DNA from: a virus
Taxonomy: Duplodnaviria > Heunggongvirae > Uroviricota > Caudoviricetes
Reading direction: 5' to 3' (one strand)
Length of the DNA: 6,964 nucleotides
IMG/VR virus record: IMGVR_UViG_2693429728_000005
Coordinates: 1-6,964 of that record
Below, piece by piece: positions 1-6,964 of the stretch (the stretch's first letter is position 1; every line of letters begins with the position of its first letter). A program made the translations under genes and the position numbers. The notes beneath the pieces were generated by a model that searched no databases, was not told where the DNA came from, and saw only the letters and a list, made by a program, of their open reading frames with translations.

Positions 1-1
1 G

Positions 2-406
2 GTGGTGAAGGATGCTTTTTATATTCATCAGCATAAAGGGACCACCAGTGCCGTGCGGCGGGTGGTGGAGCCGTTCGGATTCCTGATCCGCATTATTGAG
101 TGGTGGCAGACCGGAGAAACACCGGGCACGTTTCGCCTGGATATCGGCGTGCAGGACCAGGGCATCACTGAAGATACCTATCTGGAACTTGAGCGACTGA
201 TAAGCGATGCCAAACCATGTAGCCGCCACATGATCGGCATGTCCATCAATCTGCAGACCAGCGGCCCGCATTGGGTGGGAGCCGCCAGCTATCTTGGCGA
301 AGAAATCACGATCTATCCGTATATCAACGAAACGATTATTTCCGGTGGCACCGCGCATGAAGGCGGGGCGGTCCATGTTATTGACACAATGAGAGTGAAT
401 CCATGA
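2..406 (+). CDS. Baseplate assembly protein, P2 gpI-like, C-terminal part (5' end lies upstream of window)
   Basis: ORF runs from window edge; stop TGA overlaps ATG of the downstream fibre gene (ATGA at 403..406), typical translational coupling; position immediately upstream of H-like fibre gene matches P2 order I-H-G-FI-FII. Identity by synteny, not by search. Confidence 0.55.
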   Translation: MVKDAFYIHQHKGTTSAVRRVVEPFGFLIRIIEWWQTGETPGTFRLDIGVQDQGITEDTYLELERLISDAKPCSRHMIGMSINLQTSGPHWVGAASYLGEEITIYPYINETIISGGTAHEGGAVHVIDTMRVNP

Positions 407-1929
407 GCACAAAATTTTATACCCTGCTGACGGATATTGGCGCGGCGAAACTTGCCAGCGCCGCCGCGCTCGGTGTGCCGCTAAAAATTACCCATATGGC
501 GGTGGGCGATGGCGGTGGAGTATTGCCAACGCCGGACGCAAAACAGACGGCACTGGTAAATGAGAAACGCCGGGCTGCGCTGAATATGCTTTATATCGAC
601 CCGCAGAACAGCAGCCAGATTATTGCCGAACAGGTGATCCCTGAAAACGAGGGCGGTTGGTGGATACGTGAAGTGGGTCTGTTTGATGAGTCCGGGGCAT
701 TGATTGCCGTGGGCAACTGCCCGGAAAGCTATAAGCCGCAACTGGCTGAAGGTAGCGGGCGCACTCAGACCGTGCGCATGGTGCTGATTACCAGCAGCAC
801 GGACAATATCACCCTGAAAATCGACCCTGCTGTAGTGCTGGCAACCCGCAAGTATGTGGATGACAAGGCACTGGAGCTGAAGGTGTACGCGGATGATCAG
901 ATGGCAAAACATCTTGCCGCACCGGACCCGCATTCACAGTACGCGCCAAAAGCCAGCCCGACATTTACCGGAACCCCCAAAGCGCCAACGCCAGCGGCGG
1001 GGAATAATACCACGCAGGTTGCGACCACTGCGTTTGTACAGGCGGCACTGACGGCCCTTATTAATGGTGCGCCAGCCACGCTGGACACGCTGAAAGAAAT
1101 AGCCGCAGCCATTAACAATGATCCGAATTTCAGTACCACCATTAACAATGCGCTGGCACTAAAAGCACCGTTGTCGAGTCCGGCACTCACCGGAACGCCA
1201 ACAGCCCCCACGGCGGCGCAGTCGGTCAACAATACACAGATTGCCACTACGGCTTTTGTGAAATCGGCGATTGCAGGAATGGTGGGTTCTGCACCTGCTG
1301 CACTGGATACACTGAACGAACTGGCGGCGGCACTGGGGAATGATCCGAACTTTGCCACGACAATGCTTAATGCGCTGGCAGGTAAACAACCGCTGGACAA
1401 TACGCTTACCAATTTGAGTGGAAAGGATGTAGCTGGTCTTCTCACATACCTTGGTTTGGGAGAAGGCTCTGCATTGCCTGTTGGTGTGCCTGTTCCGTGG
1501 CCTTCAGCCACTCCGCCAACAGGCTGGCTGAAATGCAATGGTGCGGCTTTTTCTGCTGAAGAATACCCGGAACTGGCAAAGGCTTACCCGACAAATAAAT
1601 TGCCTGATTTACGCGGTGAATTTATTCGCGGCTGGGATGACGGGCGCGGGGTTGATGTTGGGCGTGCAATCTTATCATCGCAGGGCGATGCCATCAGAAA
1701 TATAATTGGCAAGTTTGGTAATACTCAATTGTACCCAAGTATCTATTGTGATGGTGCATTTGGCGTCACTGTTGAGAATGTGTCACAAACTTTAGGATTA
1801 ACTCTTGCGCCTTCAGGGGCAGGTAATGGGACTGTAAACTTTAGCTTTGATGCATCTAAAATCGTTCCTGTTGCCACTGAAAACCGGCCGCGCAACGTCG
1901 CATTTAACTTCATTGTGAGGGCTGCATAA
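403..1929 (+). CDS. Tail fibre protein (P2 gpH / Mu S-like): constant part Sc (aa 1-354) fused to variable tip Sv(A) (aa 355-508)
   Basis: 508-aa ORF; N-terminus MSTKFYTLLTDIGAAKLA...MAVGDGGG resembles P2 H N-terminus; internal NNTQxATTAFV...LDTLxExAAAxxNDPNF repeats typical of fibre shafts; C-terminus carries a tail-collar-like motif (PWPSATPPTGWLKCNGAAFSAEEYPELAKAYP...LPDLRGEFIRGWDDGRG); crossover site lies in-frame at codons 346-354 (LTYLGLGE). Confidence 0.9.
   Translation: MSTKFYTLLTDIGAAKLASAAALGVPLKITHMAVGDGGGVLPTPDAKQTALVNEKRRAALNMLYIDPQNSSQIIAEQVIPENEGGWWIREVGLFDESGALIAVGNCPESYKPQLAEGSGRTQTVRMVLITSSTDNITLKIDPAVVLATRKYVDDKALELKVYADDQMAKHLAAPDPHSQYAPKASPTFTGTPKAPTPAAGNNTTQVATTAFVQAALTALINGAPATLDTLKEIAAAINNDPNFSTTINNALALKAPLSSPALTGTPTAPTAAQSVNNTQIATTAFVKSAIAGMVGSAPAALDTLNELAAALGNDPNFATTMLNALAGKQPLDNTLTNLSGKDVAGLLTYLGLGEGSALPVGVPVPWPSATPPTGWLKCNGAAFSAEEYPELAKAYPTNKLPDLRGEFIRGWDDGRGVDVGRAILSSQGDAIRNIIGKFGNTQLYPSIYCDGAFGVTVENVSQTLGLTLAPSGAGNGTVNFSFDASKIVPVATENRPRNVAFNFIVRAA
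1439..1464. other. Invertase crossover site cix1 (26 bp, TTCTCACATACC-TT-GGTTTGGGAGAA), inside fibre gene at Sc/Sv boundary
   Basis: Near-palindromic 12-2-12 site resembling hix/gix/cix sites (half-site like TTCTCCCAAACC); sequence identity between copies begins within it; core dinucleotide TT on top strand. Confidence 0.75.
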
Positions 1930-2271
1930 TGGCACAGGCAAAATTAAACAGCGAACTGATTGCCACGGTAGCGGGTGATGTGACCGTGTTTAACTACGAC
2001 AGCAAGACGCGGGAATATCTTTCCACATCAACTGAATATCTTGCTGTTGGCGTCGGTATCCCGGCATGTTCTTGTTTAGATGCACCAGGTATACATAAAG
2101 CTGGTTATGCAATCTGCCGTTCAGCAGATTTAAACTCATGGGAGTATGTGCCAGACCATCGCGGTGAAATCATCTATAACACCGAAACGGGAGACGCCAA
2201 AGAAATCACAACTCCGGGTGATTACCCTGAAAATACAACCACTATCGCCCCGTTAACGCCATTCGATAAAT
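1451..2271 (+). repeat. Direct repeat copy 1 (821 bp): Sv(A) tip plus first 114 codons of tfa(A); identical to 2981..3801
   Basis: Base-for-base identity read from sequence and identical ORF translations; divergence at 1450 vs 2980 and at 2272 vs 3802. Confidence 0.9.
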
Positions 2272-2273
2272 AA
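1929..2273 (+). pseudogene. Truncated tail-fibre assembly gene (first 114 codons of tfa(A), then immediate TAA created by the rearrangement junction)
   Basis: 114-aa ORF identical to residues 1-114 of the 200-aa ORF at 3459..4061; lacks the C-terminal Tfa region (LNAVLDYIDAV...); sequence after codon 114 switches to the reverse complement of the invertase-downstream region. Confidence 0.8.
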
Positions 2274-2346
2274 GCGCAGTTGTACCGTTATTCACACAAA
2301 ATGACGGTATTTGTCTGCTTGCAGGGATAATCAAAATAATGCTGAT

Positions 2347-2913
2347 TCAGGGAGATTCATTGCTCTTATTTGCCGGAAATTTTCTATAAATAGTAGAAAC
2401 GCCTACATCAAAAATCAGTGCAATACGCTGTCTTGATTCTCCGGCCTCAAGTAAACGCCCAATCTGTGCCCACTGTTCGGTGGTCAACTTAGGACGGCGT
2501 CCACCTACTCTGCCTTTGGCACGAGCTGCAGCCAGCCCTGCCCTGGTACGTTCAACTATCAGTTCGCGTTCCATTTCAGCCAGGGCACCCATAACATGAA
2601 AAAAGAAACGGCCCATTGGGGTACTGGTATCAATACTGTCAGTCAGGCTTCGGAAATTCACGCCACGCTGGCGCAACTCTTCTATCAGCGTAACAAGATG
2701 CCGCATACTGCGCCCCAGTCTGTCCAGCTTCCAGACAACCAGAGTGTCTCCTGCCGATAGTGTCCTGAGCAGTTTTTTAAGCCCCGGTCTGTCGGACTTA
2801 GTGCCACTGATTTTATCCTCAAAAATCCGCTCACATCCCGCGCAGTTCAGTGCATTACGTTGCAAATCGGTGTTCTGGTCATTTGTTGACACGCGTACAT
2901 AGCCAATAAGCAT
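2347..2913 (-). CDS. Serine DNA invertase, Gin/Pin/Cin/Hin family, copy 1 (189 aa from the MLIGYVRVS start; ORF as drawn extends to 2958)
   Basis: N-terminus MLIGYVRVSTNDQNTDLQRNAL with catalytic-serine motif, VVWKLDRLGRS, FFFHVMGALAEMERELIVERT, and C-terminal HTH region GVSTIYRKF are hallmarks of small serine invertases, very close to Mu Gin as remembered; preferred start has an AGGGGA Shine-Dalgarno 7 nt upstream. Confidence 0.9.
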   Translation of the reverse strand: MLIGYVRVSTNDQNTDLQRNALNCAGCERIFEDKISGTKSDRPGLKKLLRTLSAGDTLVVWKLDRLGRSMRHLVTLIEELRQRGVNFRSLTDSIDTSTPMGRFFFHVMGALAEMERELIVERTRAGLAAARAKGRVGGRRPKLTTEQWAQIGRLLEAGESRQRIALIFDVGVSTIYRKFPANKSNESP

Positions 2914-2940
2914 GATCAATCCCCTGAATAAAAACCGGGG

Positions 2941-3459
2941 ATGATGCCAGTTAGCCATTATCTCTGCATTTTCATAAACGTTGGTTTGGGAGAAGGCTCT
3001 GCATTGCCTGTTGGTGTGCCTGTTCCGTGGCCTTCAGCCACTCCGCCAACAGGCTGGCTGAAATGCAATGGTGCGGCTTTTTCTGCTGAAGAATACCCGG
3101 AACTGGCAAAGGCTTACCCGACAAATAAATTGCCTGATTTACGCGGTGAATTTATTCGCGGCTGGGATGACGGGCGCGGGGTTGATGTTGGGCGTGCAAT
3201 CTTATCATCGCAGGGCGATGCCATCAGAAATATAATTGGCAAGTTTGGTAATACTCAATTGTACCCAAGTATCTATTGTGATGGTGCATTTGGCGTCACT
3301 GTTGAGAATGTGTCACAAACTTTAGGATTAACTCTTGCGCCTTCAGGGGCAGGTAATGGGACTGTAAACTTTAGCTTTGATGCATCTAAAATCGTTCCTG
3401 TTGCCACTGAAAACCGGCCGCGCAACGTCGCATTTAACTTCATTGTGAGGGCTGCATAA
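2941..3459 (+). CDS. Second copy of Sv(A) fibre-tip cassette, promoterless and not fused to Sc in this arrangement (cassette proper 2995..3459; the first 18 codons of the ORF are read-through across cix2 into invertase-upstream DNA)
   Basis: Residues after GLGE are identical to aa 355-508 of the fibre gene; N-terminal [14 protein letters not shown] is the antisense of the invertase leader and also appears at the start of the Sv(B) ORF, so it is not a genuine N-terminus. Confidence 0.6.
   Translation: MMPVSHYLCIFINVGLGEGSALPVGVPVPWPSATPPTGWLKCNGAAFSAEEYPELAKAYPTNKLPDLRGEFIRGWDDGRGVDVGRAILSSQGDAIRNIIGKFGNTQLYPSIYCDGAFGVTVENVSQTLGLTLAPSGAGNGTVNFSFDASKIVPVATENRPRNVAFNFIVRAA
2969..2994. other. 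Invertase crossover site cix2 (TTTTCATAAACG-TT-GGTTTGGGAGAA), same orientation as cix1
   Basis: Exact reverse complement of cix3; the left half-site is continuous with invertase-upstream sequence, the right half with Sv(A). Confidence 0.75.
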
Positions 3460-3801
3460 TGGCACAGGCAAAATTAAACAGCGAACTGATTGCCACGGTA
3501 GCGGGTGATGTGACCGTGTTTAACTACGACAGCAAGACGCGGGAATATCTTTCCACATCAACTGAATATCTTGCTGTTGGCGTCGGTATCCCGGCATGTT
3601 CTTGTTTAGATGCACCAGGTATACATAAAGCTGGTTATGCAATCTGCCGTTCAGCAGATTTAAACTCATGGGAGTATGTGCCAGACCATCGCGGTGAAAT
3701 CATCTATAACACCGAAACGGGAGACGCCAAAGAAATCACAACTCCGGGTGATTACCCTGAAAATACAACCACTATCGCCCCGTTAACGCCATTCGATAAA
3801 T
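2981..3801 (+). repeat. Direct repeat copy 2 (821 bp), identical to 1451..2271
   Basis: See copy 1. Confidence 0.9.
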
Positions 3802-4061
3802 GGGATGGTGAGAAATGGGTGACCGATACTGAGGCACAGCATTGCGCCGCAGTAGACGCGGCAGAAGCACAGCGTCAGTCACTGATTGATACTGCAATGG
3901 CTTCCATCAGTCTGATTCAACTGAAATTGCAGGCCGGGCGGAAGCTGACGCAGGCAGAAACCACCCGACTTAACGCTGTGCTGGATTACATTGACGCGGT
4001 GACGGCAACAGATACCAGCACCGCGCCGGATGTCATCTGGCCTGAACTGCCGGAGGCGTAG
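3459..4061 (+). CDS. Tail-fibre assembly protein tfa(A) (P2 gpG / Mu U-like), full length, 200 aa
   Basis: Start ATG overlaps the Sv(A) stop (TAATG); C-terminal LNAVLDYIDAVTATDTSTAPDVIWPELP resembles conserved Tfa C-termini; position directly after the fibre tip. Confidence 0.85.
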   Translation: MAQAKLNSELIATVAGDVTVFNYDSKTREYLSTSTEYLAVGVGIPACSCLDAPGIHKAGYAICRSADLNSWEYVPDHRGEIIYNTETGDAKEITTPGDYPENTTTIAPLTPFDKWDGEKWVTDTEAQHCAAVDAAEAQRQSLIDTAMASISLIQLKLQAGRKLTQAETTRLNAVLDYIDAVTATDTSTAPDVIWPELPEA

Positions 4062-4494: not shown

Positions 4495-4887
4495 TTAACA
4501 GCCTAACGCTAAAAATGAAGCGCCGAGGCCAGGAGTACTGGCTCTGGATATAAATTTAACCGGGTCGGGACTAAAACCTGCACAGGCAATATAACCAACA
4601 GCCCCGCTATCTGGTGTGTAGTCTTGTGAGACCAAAACACGCAGACATCTGTTTGGAAATGCAATCGGGAAATGGGTTACTACATCCTGTGCAATGCCTG
4701 GTGCGCCGATTGAGCCCCACTGAAGAATAAAACCTGATGGTAATTTTTGATATCCAGTACCTGAAACAGAAAGCGTGAAGCTACCCATATCAGGTATCTG
4801 ATTCGCCCCTGTCCCTACATTCCTTTTAGCCGCTTCTCCCAAACCAACGTTTATGAAAATGCAGAGATAATGGCTAACTGGCATCAT
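4495..4887 (-). CDS. Alternative fibre-tip cassette Sv(B), silent in this orientation (cassette proper 4495..4833, 112 aa after GLGE; the ORF as drawn reads through cix3)
   Basis: Minus-strand reading through cix3 gives ...NVGLGE then [19 protein letters not shown]...ALGC, in the same frame as Sc across the crossover site; inversion would produce a 466-aa Sc+Sv(B) fibre; sits directly upstream (minus sense) of tfa(B). Confidence 0.75.
4834..4859. other. Invertase crossover site cix3 (TTCTCCCAAACC-AA-CGTTTATGAAAA), inverted relative to cix1 and cix2
   Basis: 12-2-12 site; close to the hix half-site as remembered (TTATCAAAAACC); core AA on top strand versus TT at cix1/cix2. Confidence 0.8.
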
Positions 4888-4914
4888 CCCCGGTTTTTAT
4901 TCAGGGGATTGATC

Positions 4915-5481
4915 ATGCTTATTGGCTATGTACGCGTGTCAACAAATGACCAGAACACCGATTTGCAACGTAATGCACTGAACTGCGCGGGATGTGAGCG
5001 GATTTTTGAGGATAAAATCAGTGGCACTAAGTCCGACAGACCGGGGCTTAAAAAACTGCTCAGGACACTATCGGCAGGAGACACTCTGGTTGTCTGGAAG
5101 CTGGACAGACTGGGGCGCAGTATGCGGCATCTTGTTACGCTGATAGAAGAGTTGCGCCAGCGTGGCGTGAATTTCCGAAGCCTGACTGACAGTATTGATA
5201 CCAGTACCCCAATGGGCCGTTTCTTTTTTCATGTTATGGGTGCCCTGGCTGAAATGGAACGCGAACTGATAGTTGAACGTACCAGGGCAGGGCTGGCTGC
5301 AGCTCGTGCCAAAGGCAGAGTAGGTGGACGCCGTCCTAAGTTGACCACCGAACAGTGGGCACAGATTGGGCGTTTACTTGAGGCCGGAGAATCAAGACAG
5401 CGTATTGCACTGATTTTTGATGTAGGCGTTTCTACTATTTATAGAAAATTTCCGGCAAATAAGAGCAATGAATCTCCCTGA
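4915..5481 (+). CDS. Serine DNA invertase, Gin/Pin/Cin/Hin family, copy 2 (ORF as drawn starts at 4870)
   Basis: Identical protein to copy 1; AGGGGA Shine-Dalgarno before ATG 4915; a GATAAT -10-like hexamer at 4866..4871 abuts cix3, consistent with a promoter overlapping the crossover site. Confidence 0.9.
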   Translation: MLIGYVRVSTNDQNTDLQRNALNCAGCERIFEDKISGTKSDRPGLKKLLRTLSAGDTLVVWKLDRLGRSMRHLVTLIEELRQRGVNFRSLTDSIDTSTPMGRFFFHVMGALAEMERELIVERTRAGLAAARAKGRVGGRRPKLTTEQWAQIGRLLEAGESRQRIALIFDVGVSTIYRKFPANKSNESP

Positions 5482-5529
5482 ATCAGCATTATTTTGATTA
5501 TCCCTGCAAGCAGACAAATACCGTCATTT

Positions 5530-5547
5530 TGTGTGAATAACGGTACA
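5530..5547 (+). promoter_or_regulatory. TGT-N12-ACA dyad, candidate P2-type late-promoter activator (Ogr/Delta family) site upstream of the sheath gene
   Basis: TGTgtgaataacggtACA lies about 75-95 nt upstream of the sheath ATG (5624), appropriate for an element centred near -55; P2 late promoters carry this dyad. The same dyad is mirrored at 2281..2298 inside the left repeat arm. Confidence 0.4.
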
Positions 5548-5623
5548 ACTGCGCTTAGCTGTTTGTCAGGCACAATCACTTCAACATAGGGCGAAGCCTA
5601 ATCCAATCAGGAGGTTCGCCACT

Positions 5624-6796
5624 ATGGCTCAGGATTACCACCACGGGGTGCGCGTTGTTGAAGTCAACGAAGGCACCCGATCCATTACCACGGTGAGCAC
5701 CGCCATCGTGGGTATGATCTGCACGGGCGATGATGCCGATGCAAAAATGTTTCCTCTTAATAAACCCGTGCTGATCACTGATGTGCTGACTGCCAGCGGT
5801 AAAGCGGGTGAGTCCGGTACTCTGGCCCGTTCGCTGGATGCCATCGCTGACCAGGCAAAACCCGTGACCGTTGTTGTGCGTGTGCCGCAGGGTGAAACGG
5901 AAGACGAAACCACGACCAATATCATCGGCGCTGTGACTGCTGAAGGTAAAAAAACAGGCATGAAAGCCCTGCTATCTGCCCAGTCACAGCTCGGCGTTAA
6001 ACCGCGCATTCTCGGCGTGCCAGGTCACGATAACAAAGCCGTTGCGACTGAGTTGCTGAGCGTGGCGCAAAGCCTGCGTGGGTTTGCTTACCTGTCAGCG
6101 TATGGCTGCAAGACGGTACAGGAGGCGATCACTTACCGTGAAAACTTCAGCCAGCGCGAAGGAATGCTGATCTGGCCCGACTTTACTGGCTGGGATACGG
6201 TGTTGAATGCCGAAGCAACGGCATATGCCACCGCCCGTGCGCTTGGTCTGCGCGCCAAAATTGATGAGCAGACCGGGTGGCACAAAAGCCTGTCCAACGT
6301 GGGCGTGAACGGTGTCACCGGAATTTCTGCAGATGTGTTCTGGGATCTGCAGGACCCGGCAACCGATGCGGGACTGCTTAACCAGAACGACGTCACCACG
6401 CTTATCCGCAAAGACGGTTTCCGCTTCTGGGGTTCCCGCTGCCTGAGTGATGACCCGCTCTTTGCCTTCGAAAACTACACCCGCACGGCGCAGGTACTGA
6501 TGGACACGATGGCAGAAGCGCATATGTGGGCGGTGGACAAACCGCTGAACCCGTCGCTGGCCCGCGACATTATCGAAGGTATCCGCGCCAAAATGCGCAG
6601 CCTGGTCAGTCAGGGGTATCTCATTGGTGGTGATTGCTGGCTGGACGAGTCGGTGAACGACAAAGACACGCTGAAAGCCGGAAAACTCACCATCGACTAT
6701 GACTACACGCCAGTGCCGCCACTTGAAAATCTGATGCTGCGTCAGCGCATCACCGATCAGTACCTGGTGAATTTTGCCAGCCAGGTCAGCGCGTAA
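5624..6796 (+). CDS. Tail sheath protein (P2 gpFI-like), 390 aa
   Basis: Strong AGGAGG Shine-Dalgarno 8 nt upstream; N-terminus [31 protein letters not shown] matches the contractile-tail sheath N-terminus of P2-like phages as remembered; followed by tail tube gene. Confidence 0.9.
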
Positions 6797-6805
6797 GGGG
6801 ACAAC

Positions 6806-6964
6806 ATGGCTTTACCACGCAAATTAAAACATCTGAACCTGTTTAACGACGGGAACAACTGGCAGGGGATCGTAGAGTCTTTGACGCTGCCGAAATTCAC
6901 CCGCAAATATGAGAAGTATCGCGGCGGCGGAATGCCGGGTGCAGTGGATGTGGATCTGGGGCTT
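6806..6964 (+). CDS. Tail tube protein (P2 gpFII-like), N-terminal 53 codons; continues beyond window
   Basis: ATG at 6806 preceded by AAGGGGA; translation MALPRKLKHLNLFNDGNNWQGIVESLTLPKFTRKYEKYRGGGMPGAVDVDLGL read manually; resembles FII N-terminus and follows the sheath gene as in P2. Confidence 0.75.
   Translation, partial: MALPRKLKHLNLFNDGNNWQGIVESLTLPKFTRKYEKYRGGGMPGAVDVDLGL

Follow-up and report, generated by a model that had tools for sequence, protein, structure and literature searches.

The 6,964-bp stretch of DNA analyzed here (the window) is the tail-fiber end of a P2-like Escherichia coli prophage whose net change relative to one prophage is a 1,530-bp insertion bounded by a single novel joint. 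When the locus is read in the flipped state of its fiber switch, this joint becomes a plain head-to-tail tandem joint, and a duplication made in that state, followed by one ordinary flip, returns the window base for base in silico. As the best explanation we propose a homology-independent tandem duplication that took place in a cell carrying the flipped state and was followed by a flip by the phage invertase, a proposition that we judge to be evenly balanced. The underlying system is well known, a standard Gin/Cin/Pin-type tail-fiber switch, and the event is private to one sequence.

The native switch and the extra 1,530-bp unit

The window contains, in order, the end of gene I, gene H, an invertible cassette, a serine invertase gene, the tail sheath gene, and the start of the tail tube gene (Table 1). 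The switch follows a simple layout, in which the constant part of H (Sc) leads into a cix crossover site, the segment SvA, tfaA, tfaB', and SvB', a further cix site, and the serine invertase gene. Among annotated records the closest is a prophage of E. coli SL124 (NZ_CM194971.1), with 5,434 bp in the corresponding region. Removing positions 2271 to 3800 from the window leaves exactly this length, and the collapsed 5,434 bp are 100% identical to locus L002, a contig of assembly GCA_041003375.1, and differ from the SL124 prophage at 5 SNPs.

Protein domains agree with this layout. The H protein matches the Pfam families Phage_tail_fib (residues 1 to 150) and Collar (residues 361 to 408), and the invertase matches Resolvase (residues 3 to 135, 2.2e-53) and HTH_7 (residues 138 to 181, 1.4e-15). 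Pfam identifies Tail_P2_I on the L002 gene that is identical to the gene I-like part of the window, and the families found on genes identical to the sheath and tube genes back their annotation. Among public contigs, the identical H protein is encoded on 35 blocks and the exact full-length TfaA protein on 198. Within the constant part of H we also noted two tandem repeats of about 73 aa (940-1158 and 1159-1392; 61% identical, E = 2e-28), which represent the usual tail-fiber repeat motif. Tandem Repeats Finder reported no repeats in the window.

Table 1. Coordinates of features in the window. Positions count from the first base; L001 to L012 denote related loci.
Feature	Position	Strand	Basis
P2 gene I-like tail protein, 3' part; single-copy left flank	1..406	+	collinear with L001 CDS "phage tail protein I"
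Tail-fiber gene H, 508 aa, intact; Sc up to the cix core, SvA beyond	403..1929	+	ORF
cixL, TTCTCACATACC-TT-GGTTTGGGAGAA, core 1451-1452	1439..1464	+	22/24 against half-site consensus
tfaA', truncated assembly gene, 114 aa	1929..2273	+	translation; in-frame TAA stop made by the joint
Extra 1,530-bp unit	2271..3800	.	100% identical, contiguous in L006 and L010 at 8813-10342
Inverted second copy of the TGT-N12-ACA dyad, core promoter absent	2281..2298	-	pattern scan
Second serine DNA invertase gene, inverted, 188 aa	2347..2913	-	mirror of 4915-5481 in exact inverted repeat
Second SvA, promoterless hybrid ORF starting in the invertase leader	2944..3459	+	ORF; Collar domain
cixM, TTTTCATAAACG-TT-GGTTTGGGAGAA, third site, core 2981-2982	2969..2994	+	identical to invertase-side site of flipped L005, L006, L010
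tfaA, full-length, 200 aa	3459..4061	+	Caudo_TAP at 78-199
cix-like 26-mer, CCATTCGATAAA-TG-GGATGGTGAGAA, core position abutting the tfaA breakpoint	3789..3814	+	13/24 matches
tfaB, alternative assembly gene, 146 aa	4033..4473	-	ORF; Caudo_TAP on identical gene
SvB', silent alternative variable fiber part	4495..4887	-	ORF; Gp53-like_C
cixR, TTCTCCCAAACC-AA-CGTTTATGAAAA, core 4846-4847	4834..4859	+	reverse complement of cixM sequence
Resident invertase gene, 188 aa	4915..5481	+	L001 annotation; stop codon 5479-5481
TGT-N12-ACA dyad upstream of the sheath gene	5530-5547	+	pattern scan; consensus from PMC3931495
Tail sheath (5624-6796) and start of tail tube (6806-); single-copy right flank	5624..6964	+	L001 annotation

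The extra unit is recorded in the window as two long exact repeats. Positions 1451 to 2271 recur at 2981 to 3801 as a direct repeat of 821 nt with an offset of 1530, and positions 2271 to 2995 are the reverse complement of 4833 to 5557 over 725 nt, lengths that are far beyond chance. At 2270|2271 the sequence passes from codon 114 of tfaA (AAA, 2268-2270) to the reverse complement of position 5557, which lies 76 bp past the stop codon of the invertase gene. The first-pass annotation had placed the switch at this point, and the repeat coordinates agree. The native partners of the two breakpoints are 3800|3801, in the full-length tfaA, and 5557|5558, upstream of the sheath gene. Comparing the parent sequences at the joint, GATAAA|TGGG and ACAGC|TAAGC, we counted a microhomology of exactly 1 nt (T2271); the earlier estimate of 1 to 3 nt was correct in that there is almost none, and its upper value drops away. 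As had also been claimed, the joint lies outside the true crossover sites, and we rejected a crossover at a true cix site since all the cores are elsewhere.

The truncated 114-aa TfaA' gave no Pfam match. The full TfaA holds Caudo_TAP at residues 78 to 199, and tfaA' in the window isomer is thus without most of this domain. On the other side of the joint, the TGT-N12-ACA dyad matches the P2-type late-activator site of the P2 late promoter consensus (PMC3931495). It stands 77 bp upstream of the sheath ATG, and the breakpoint at 5557|5558 falls 10 nt downstream of it. The duplicated unit takes along the activator dyad without the core promoter, and the copy faces the truncated tfaA from the opposite strand. 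Scans for promoters and terminators near the joint found none above shuffle expectation.

To look for the joint elsewhere, we used a 301-bp query (2120-2420) against 5,426 complete E. coli genomes, 50,697 phage records, and 72,556 plasmids, together with exact 30-mer and 22-mer scans of viral (IMG/VR), JGI metagenome, and species-genome (185,579) contigs. The joint was absent from the E. coli, phage, plasmid, IMG/VR, JGI metagenome, and species-genome collections, in keeping with the earlier description of it as novel. The matches from 1,914 E. coli genomes all break at the joint base, position 152 of the BLAST query, and none of them crosses it. An exact look-up of the 114-aa truncated Tfa found no gene with this product on record, and the 24 contigs that we read among those encoding the identical H protein all have the native layout, without the joint.

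Inverted invertase arms on both sides of the segment occur in only 1 of the 5,426 genomes, FDAARGOS_1287. We rejected this strain as a like duplication, as it carries two different invertase genes with 92.6% identity. In its locus (NZ_CP070071.1, 129,610-132,867; L012), the same cassette sits between a P2-like recombinase gene and pinE, which are inverted relative to each other, with P2 tail genes on one side and unrelated genes and ssrA on the other. This arrangement suggests a chromosomal inversion in which cix sites from two prophages recombined.

A tandem joint in the flipped state

The extra unit is the reverse complement of a block of the flipped prophage that runs through codons 114 to 1 of tfaA, SvA, cix, the invertase gene, and its 76-bp 3' flank. 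That 2271 to 3800 reads as a flipped molecule had been proposed before, and it is borne out by two sequences in the flipped state, in which the same 1,530 bp are contiguous and identical at every base. One of them, L006, comes from an ENA metagenome and the other, L010, from assembly GCA_019661135.1, and in both the cassette is opposite to the native form of the window. L002 is in the A-on state, with an H protein of 508 aa; L005, L006, and L010 are B-on, with H as an Sc-SvB protein of 466 aa, and the flanks are identical. Because L002 and L006/L010 are 100% identical to the corresponding parts of the window, both flip states of exactly this sequence occur in nature. The 171-aa hybrid SvA ORF that is found as the second SvA in the window is also called in the flipped loci L005 and L006, in which SvB' is fused to Sc as the 466-aa H.

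In the B-on locus constructed in silico, the two points joined at 2270|2271 share one strand and lie 1,530 bp apart, and the 1,530-bp unit occurs once. The joint is therefore a plain head-to-tail tandem joint when viewed in this frame, where the unit is contiguous, its copies stand head to tail, and a single junction is new. We simulated the sequence of events by flipping the collapsed locus at the cix cores, duplicating the block, and then flipping between the fiber-side cix and the outermost invertase-side cix. The product equals the window at 6,964 of 6,964 bases. A simulated flip at the inner invertase-side cix did not reproduce the window. Since the match is exact, one nonhomologous joint and one ordinary flip suffice, and the three cix sites of the window stand in the orientations that duplication plus flip requires.

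The proposed route would begin with the cassette in the flipped (SvB-on) state. The 1,530-bp block, which spans codons 114 to 1 of tfaA, SvA, the invertase-side cix, the invertase gene, and the next 76 bp after its stop, would be doubled head to tail by a homology-independent exchange with a 1-nt overlap, perhaps an unequal sister exchange or a template switch. The resulting locus would have three cix sites and two invertase genes. A flip between the fiber-side cix and the outermost cix, presumably by the invertase, would then reverse one copy of the unit, so that the tandem joint would now appear as tfaA fused to the far end of the inverted invertase arm. Each of these events is well known. 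Because the tandem joint is seen only after a site-specific flip, the assembled orientation resembles an inverted insertion.

This resemblance bears on the mechanism suggested by the first-pass annotation, which took an inverted-duplication-type join between molecules or sister strands in opposite flip states as the simplest explanation. Such a join is not needed when a tandem joint and an ordinary flip give the window exactly. Nor does one inverted join between molecules lead to the observed sequence, since beyond it would come Sc' and the left flank instead of the invertase gene and sheath. A single inverted join is thus insufficient, and a second exchange, which that account left unspecified, would be required.

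Cell, library, or assembler as the origin of the joint

We infer that the joint arose in a cell rather than in a library or an assembler, and that the duplication preceded the flip. The same geometry could have a nonbiological source, in a chimeric molecule or read or a blunt mis-join of contig ends from a culture of mixed flip states, and we consider this a substantial possibility, if somewhat short of even. Polymerase template switching, MDA, or library ligation would then have made the joint, and the assembler would have threaded it through the shared invertible segment. By our own derivation the geometry does not separate biology from artifact, because an A-on end spliced to a flipped-state read that starts past the invertase gene equals duplication plus flip. 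We reason that the joint was present in at least one read, because assembly by overlaps or de Bruijn graphs has no means of creating a joint with a 1-nt overlap, and single-read joints are usually dropped by modern assemblers, which speaks against the artifact. So does the position of the breakpoints, which lie within 1.5 to 1.8 kb of each other at one locus; ligation chimeras are distance-independent (PMC3411829), and we estimate that a random ligation chimera would bring breakpoints this close in about 1 in 1,000 cases in a 5-Mb genome. Junction homology of 0 to 1 bp is on record for real duplications (bioRxiv 10.64898/2026.05.22.727201); in Salmonella, verified spontaneous duplications had at least 11 bp at the joint (PMC3411829), longer than the 1 nt of the window. 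Against an origin in the cell, no second instance of the joint turned up in the collections searched, and a random blunt join would show an overlap of 0 to 1 nt with a probability of 0.84, so that the 1 nt found here is compatible with one. Inheritance of the duplication is unsupported because its copies match at 100% of positions, the 821-nt direct repeats make the structure unstable, and a truncated tfaA hardly points to a benefit. We rejected a fold-back (missed-adapter) read, since reverse-complementing the sequence on one side of the joint does not give that on the other, as well as tandem lysogens or two prophages with a deletion, on grounds of parsimony and because the flanks are collinear with one prophage.

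The literature on sequencing artifacts cuts both ways. Long-read assemblies of prophage tail-fiber regions with mixed flip states are known to yield spurious contigs of 7.5 to 12.7 kb, and artifactual duplications at such loci have been warned of (Forde et al., PMC4134206). The window is of the same locus type and, at 6,964 bp, of the same size class, and it may be a whole small contig. The spurious contigs described there depend on a mixed-orientation culture and are clean alternative orientations without a novel nonhomologous joint, whereas the window has one. Short-read contigs of this prophage do break at the invertible segment: two with the identical H stop at or inside it, L014 at 8899, near cixR, and L015 at 8066, in tfaA, as expected if the sequenced cultures held both orientations. 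The outer junctions of the window are A-on with a flipped piece inserted, the outcome expected of a minority-state read spliced into a majority-state path. In the A-on view, moreover, the joint links points 1,757 bp apart in inverted orientation, and such joins are the dominant class of MDA chimera (85% inverted, most less than 10 kb apart; PMC1855051). Of the proximal inverted MDA chimeras, however, 93.5% have at least 2 bp of complementarity (PMC1855051), and here there is 1 nt. Had a chimera formed on an A-on molecule, the invertase would also be followed by SvB and not SvA, so two further state switches would be needed in the assembly path, and on a flipped molecule the join would belong to the rare direct class under 10 kb (11/475; PMC1855051). 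The artifact leaves one coincidence without explanation, the breakpoint on a cix-like site considered below (~1%). An artifact had been named as the alternative from the start, and the near-blunt singleton joint and the contig-like size of the window keep that reading alive.

Two further routes would place the event in the cell by other means. A template switch in the A-on state, of the fork-stalling or tandem-inversion-duplication kind, or a sister join between opposite flip states, would link codon 114 of tfaA to the opposite strand past the invertase gene and switch back within 2981-2995. The window can indeed be written as a direct copy, an inverted piece, and a direct copy, with the second junction in the 15 nt (2981-2995) that the direct and inverted repeats have in common, and models of tandem inversion duplication of such a kind exist (PMC4689423, citing Kugelberg 2010). 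These models start at short inverted repeats, whereas the first junction of the window has 1 nt and no inverted microhomology, and folding at both breakpoints is no better than that of shuffled sequence (z from -0.75 to +0.67). Hairpin-driven template switching was rejected on these nonsignificant scores; near the breakpoints there is no hairpin except the TGT-N12-ACA dyad, at 10 nt from one of them. Set against one rare event and a flip shown in nature, the two coupled rare switches of the A-on route make it improbable.

The remaining route turns on the cix-like 26-mer at the breakpoint in tfaA. Among all 26-mers of the native locus this sequence ranks at the 99.8th percentile, and 9 of 12 positions in its right half agree with a cix half-site, a level reached at only 9 of 10,846 half-site positions; its left half is copied at 2259 to 2270. 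Allowing for the 6 to 8 registers tested, a breakpoint would fall on such a site by chance in about 0.7 to 0.9% of cases, and an artifact would be indifferent to it. The invertase itself may have made the joint by cutting or exchanging strands at this cryptic site and at a weak site past its own gene, CTGACAAACAGC-TA-AGCGCAGTTGTA, either between sister copies or through a 1,530-bp circle that re-integrated. The tfaA breakpoint falls exactly where a serine recombinase on the 26-mer would cut, and by our reasoning the TA at the joint equals the bottom strand of a TG x TA heteroduplex. Documented quasi-site events join a quasi site to a true cix site, with matching central dinucleotides favored. 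Here, neither partner is a true cix site, the cores differ (TG and TA), and the partner site is ordinary, with 9 of 24 matches (89th percentile). Quasi-site use by Cin has been reported (Iida and Hiestand-Nauer 1986 and 1987, as cited in PMC4134206). Invertases strongly prefer intramolecular inversion, in line with the preference of bacterial inversion systems for inversion over deletion (PMC11850598), and the duplication would need an intermolecular step. A clean quasi-site exchange is unlikely on these grounds, and we give an invertase-made joint a very slim chance. A related version, in which the invertase only triggered a real duplication by cutting the cryptic cix-like site in tfaA and a two-site switch was thereby becoming a multiple-inversion locus, is a long shot, though a shade less so.

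Crossover sites, isomers, and related systems

The tandem duplication followed by a flip would leave the locus with an unusual set of crossover sites. All three cix sites of the window have the 12-2-12 structure and the same TT/AA core; cixL and cixM are in direct orientation to each other, and cixR is inverted relative to both. cixL is found as the same site in the same place in L001 and L002 and flipped in L006, and cixM is identical to the invertase-side site of the flipped loci L005, L006, and L010. Across the related loci (n = 12), there are at most two cix sites each, 1,865 bp apart and with the same TT/AA core. The natural relatives examined have two sites and one invertase gene, whereas in the window there are three sites and two invertase genes, and one tfaA is truncated.

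Simulation of the possible flips gave four isomers: the plain tandem form in the B-on state, the window itself, the product of the inner flip, and the product of a flip between cixM and cixR. Sc-SvB is expressed by the plain tandem form alone and the other three make the same Sc-SvA fiber, which adds no new variant. In the isomer represented by the window, H (Sc-SvA) is intact and the full tfaA lies 1.2 kb downstream, behind the antisense copy of the invertase gene. A return to the native form is possible by way of the 821-nt direct repeats and, with less ease, by a deletion that joins cixL to cixM; for this reason the rearranged structure should be unstable.

The native form of the switch resembles known systems. 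As in the Mu G/Gin, P1 C/Cin, and e14 P/Pin switches and E. coli prophage versions such as EC958 Phi1/2/4, a constant fiber part is fused at a 26-bp site. As in these serine-invertase switches, there are two variable parts, each with its own assembly gene, and the invertase gene lies beside the segment (PMC4134206). The sites have the 12-2-12 form with an identical central dinucleotide, and both orientations are found in public sequences. The Resolvase and HTH domains of the invertase, the inverted sites with the same dinucleotide, and the occurrence of both orientations place the locus with the Gin/Cin/Pin/Hin type. Switches of this type have a Fis-bound recombinational enhancer in cis, usually in the 5' end of the invertase gene, and by analogy with the family this locus would probably have one as well.

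Several observations on the cassette extend beyond the window. In L002 to L011, a 1.87-kb cassette (SvA, tfaA, tfaB', SvB'; about 9511 to 11394 per locus) is at least 99.6% identical behind unrelated tail modules, which are P2-like, Mu-like (Phage_Mu_Gp45/48), or of another myovirus type. In L005, identity falls to 96.8% in Sc and is 99.7 to 99.9% in the cassette and right flank. The cassette appears to be exchanged as a module. L011, a natural locus, has more than two variable parts, with an extra, third Collar-domain variable fiber fragment (2117-2593) between SvB' and the invertase gene.

The rearranged form invites comparison with other classes of events. In the flipped frame, like an illegitimate (RecA-independent) tandem duplication, it has one contiguous unit, identical copies, and one joint of 1 nt. 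In the A-on frame it joins points less than 2 kb apart in inverted orientation, in the manner of MDA chimeras and tandem inversion duplications, but the usual starting point of both is a short complementary or inverted repeat, and the novel joint has 1 nt. Like Min of p15B and the shufflons, the window has more than two crossover sites in mixed orientation and several isomers; in such multiple-inversion systems, inversion is preferred over deletion between same-oriented sites (PMC11850598). Min and the shufflons have several distinct variable segments and one recombinase gene, and they are conserved, whereas the extra site of the window comes from an exact private duplication and adds no variable segment. 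The resemblance is one of form only.

If the window is an artifact, it is an actual instance of the mis-assembly that Forde et al. warned of at invertible prophage segments, and the record needs correction. If it is real, a plain tandem duplication has been made to look like an "inverted duplication" by a site-specific flip, a pitfall in calling structural variants and in reading mechanism from the orientation of a junction. A real event would also be one step by which a two-site switch gains a third site and a second recombinase gene. Should the invertase have triggered it, off-target cutting by a phage invertase would have reshaped its own locus, and the window would be a snapshot of how complex systems like Min of p15B could arise.
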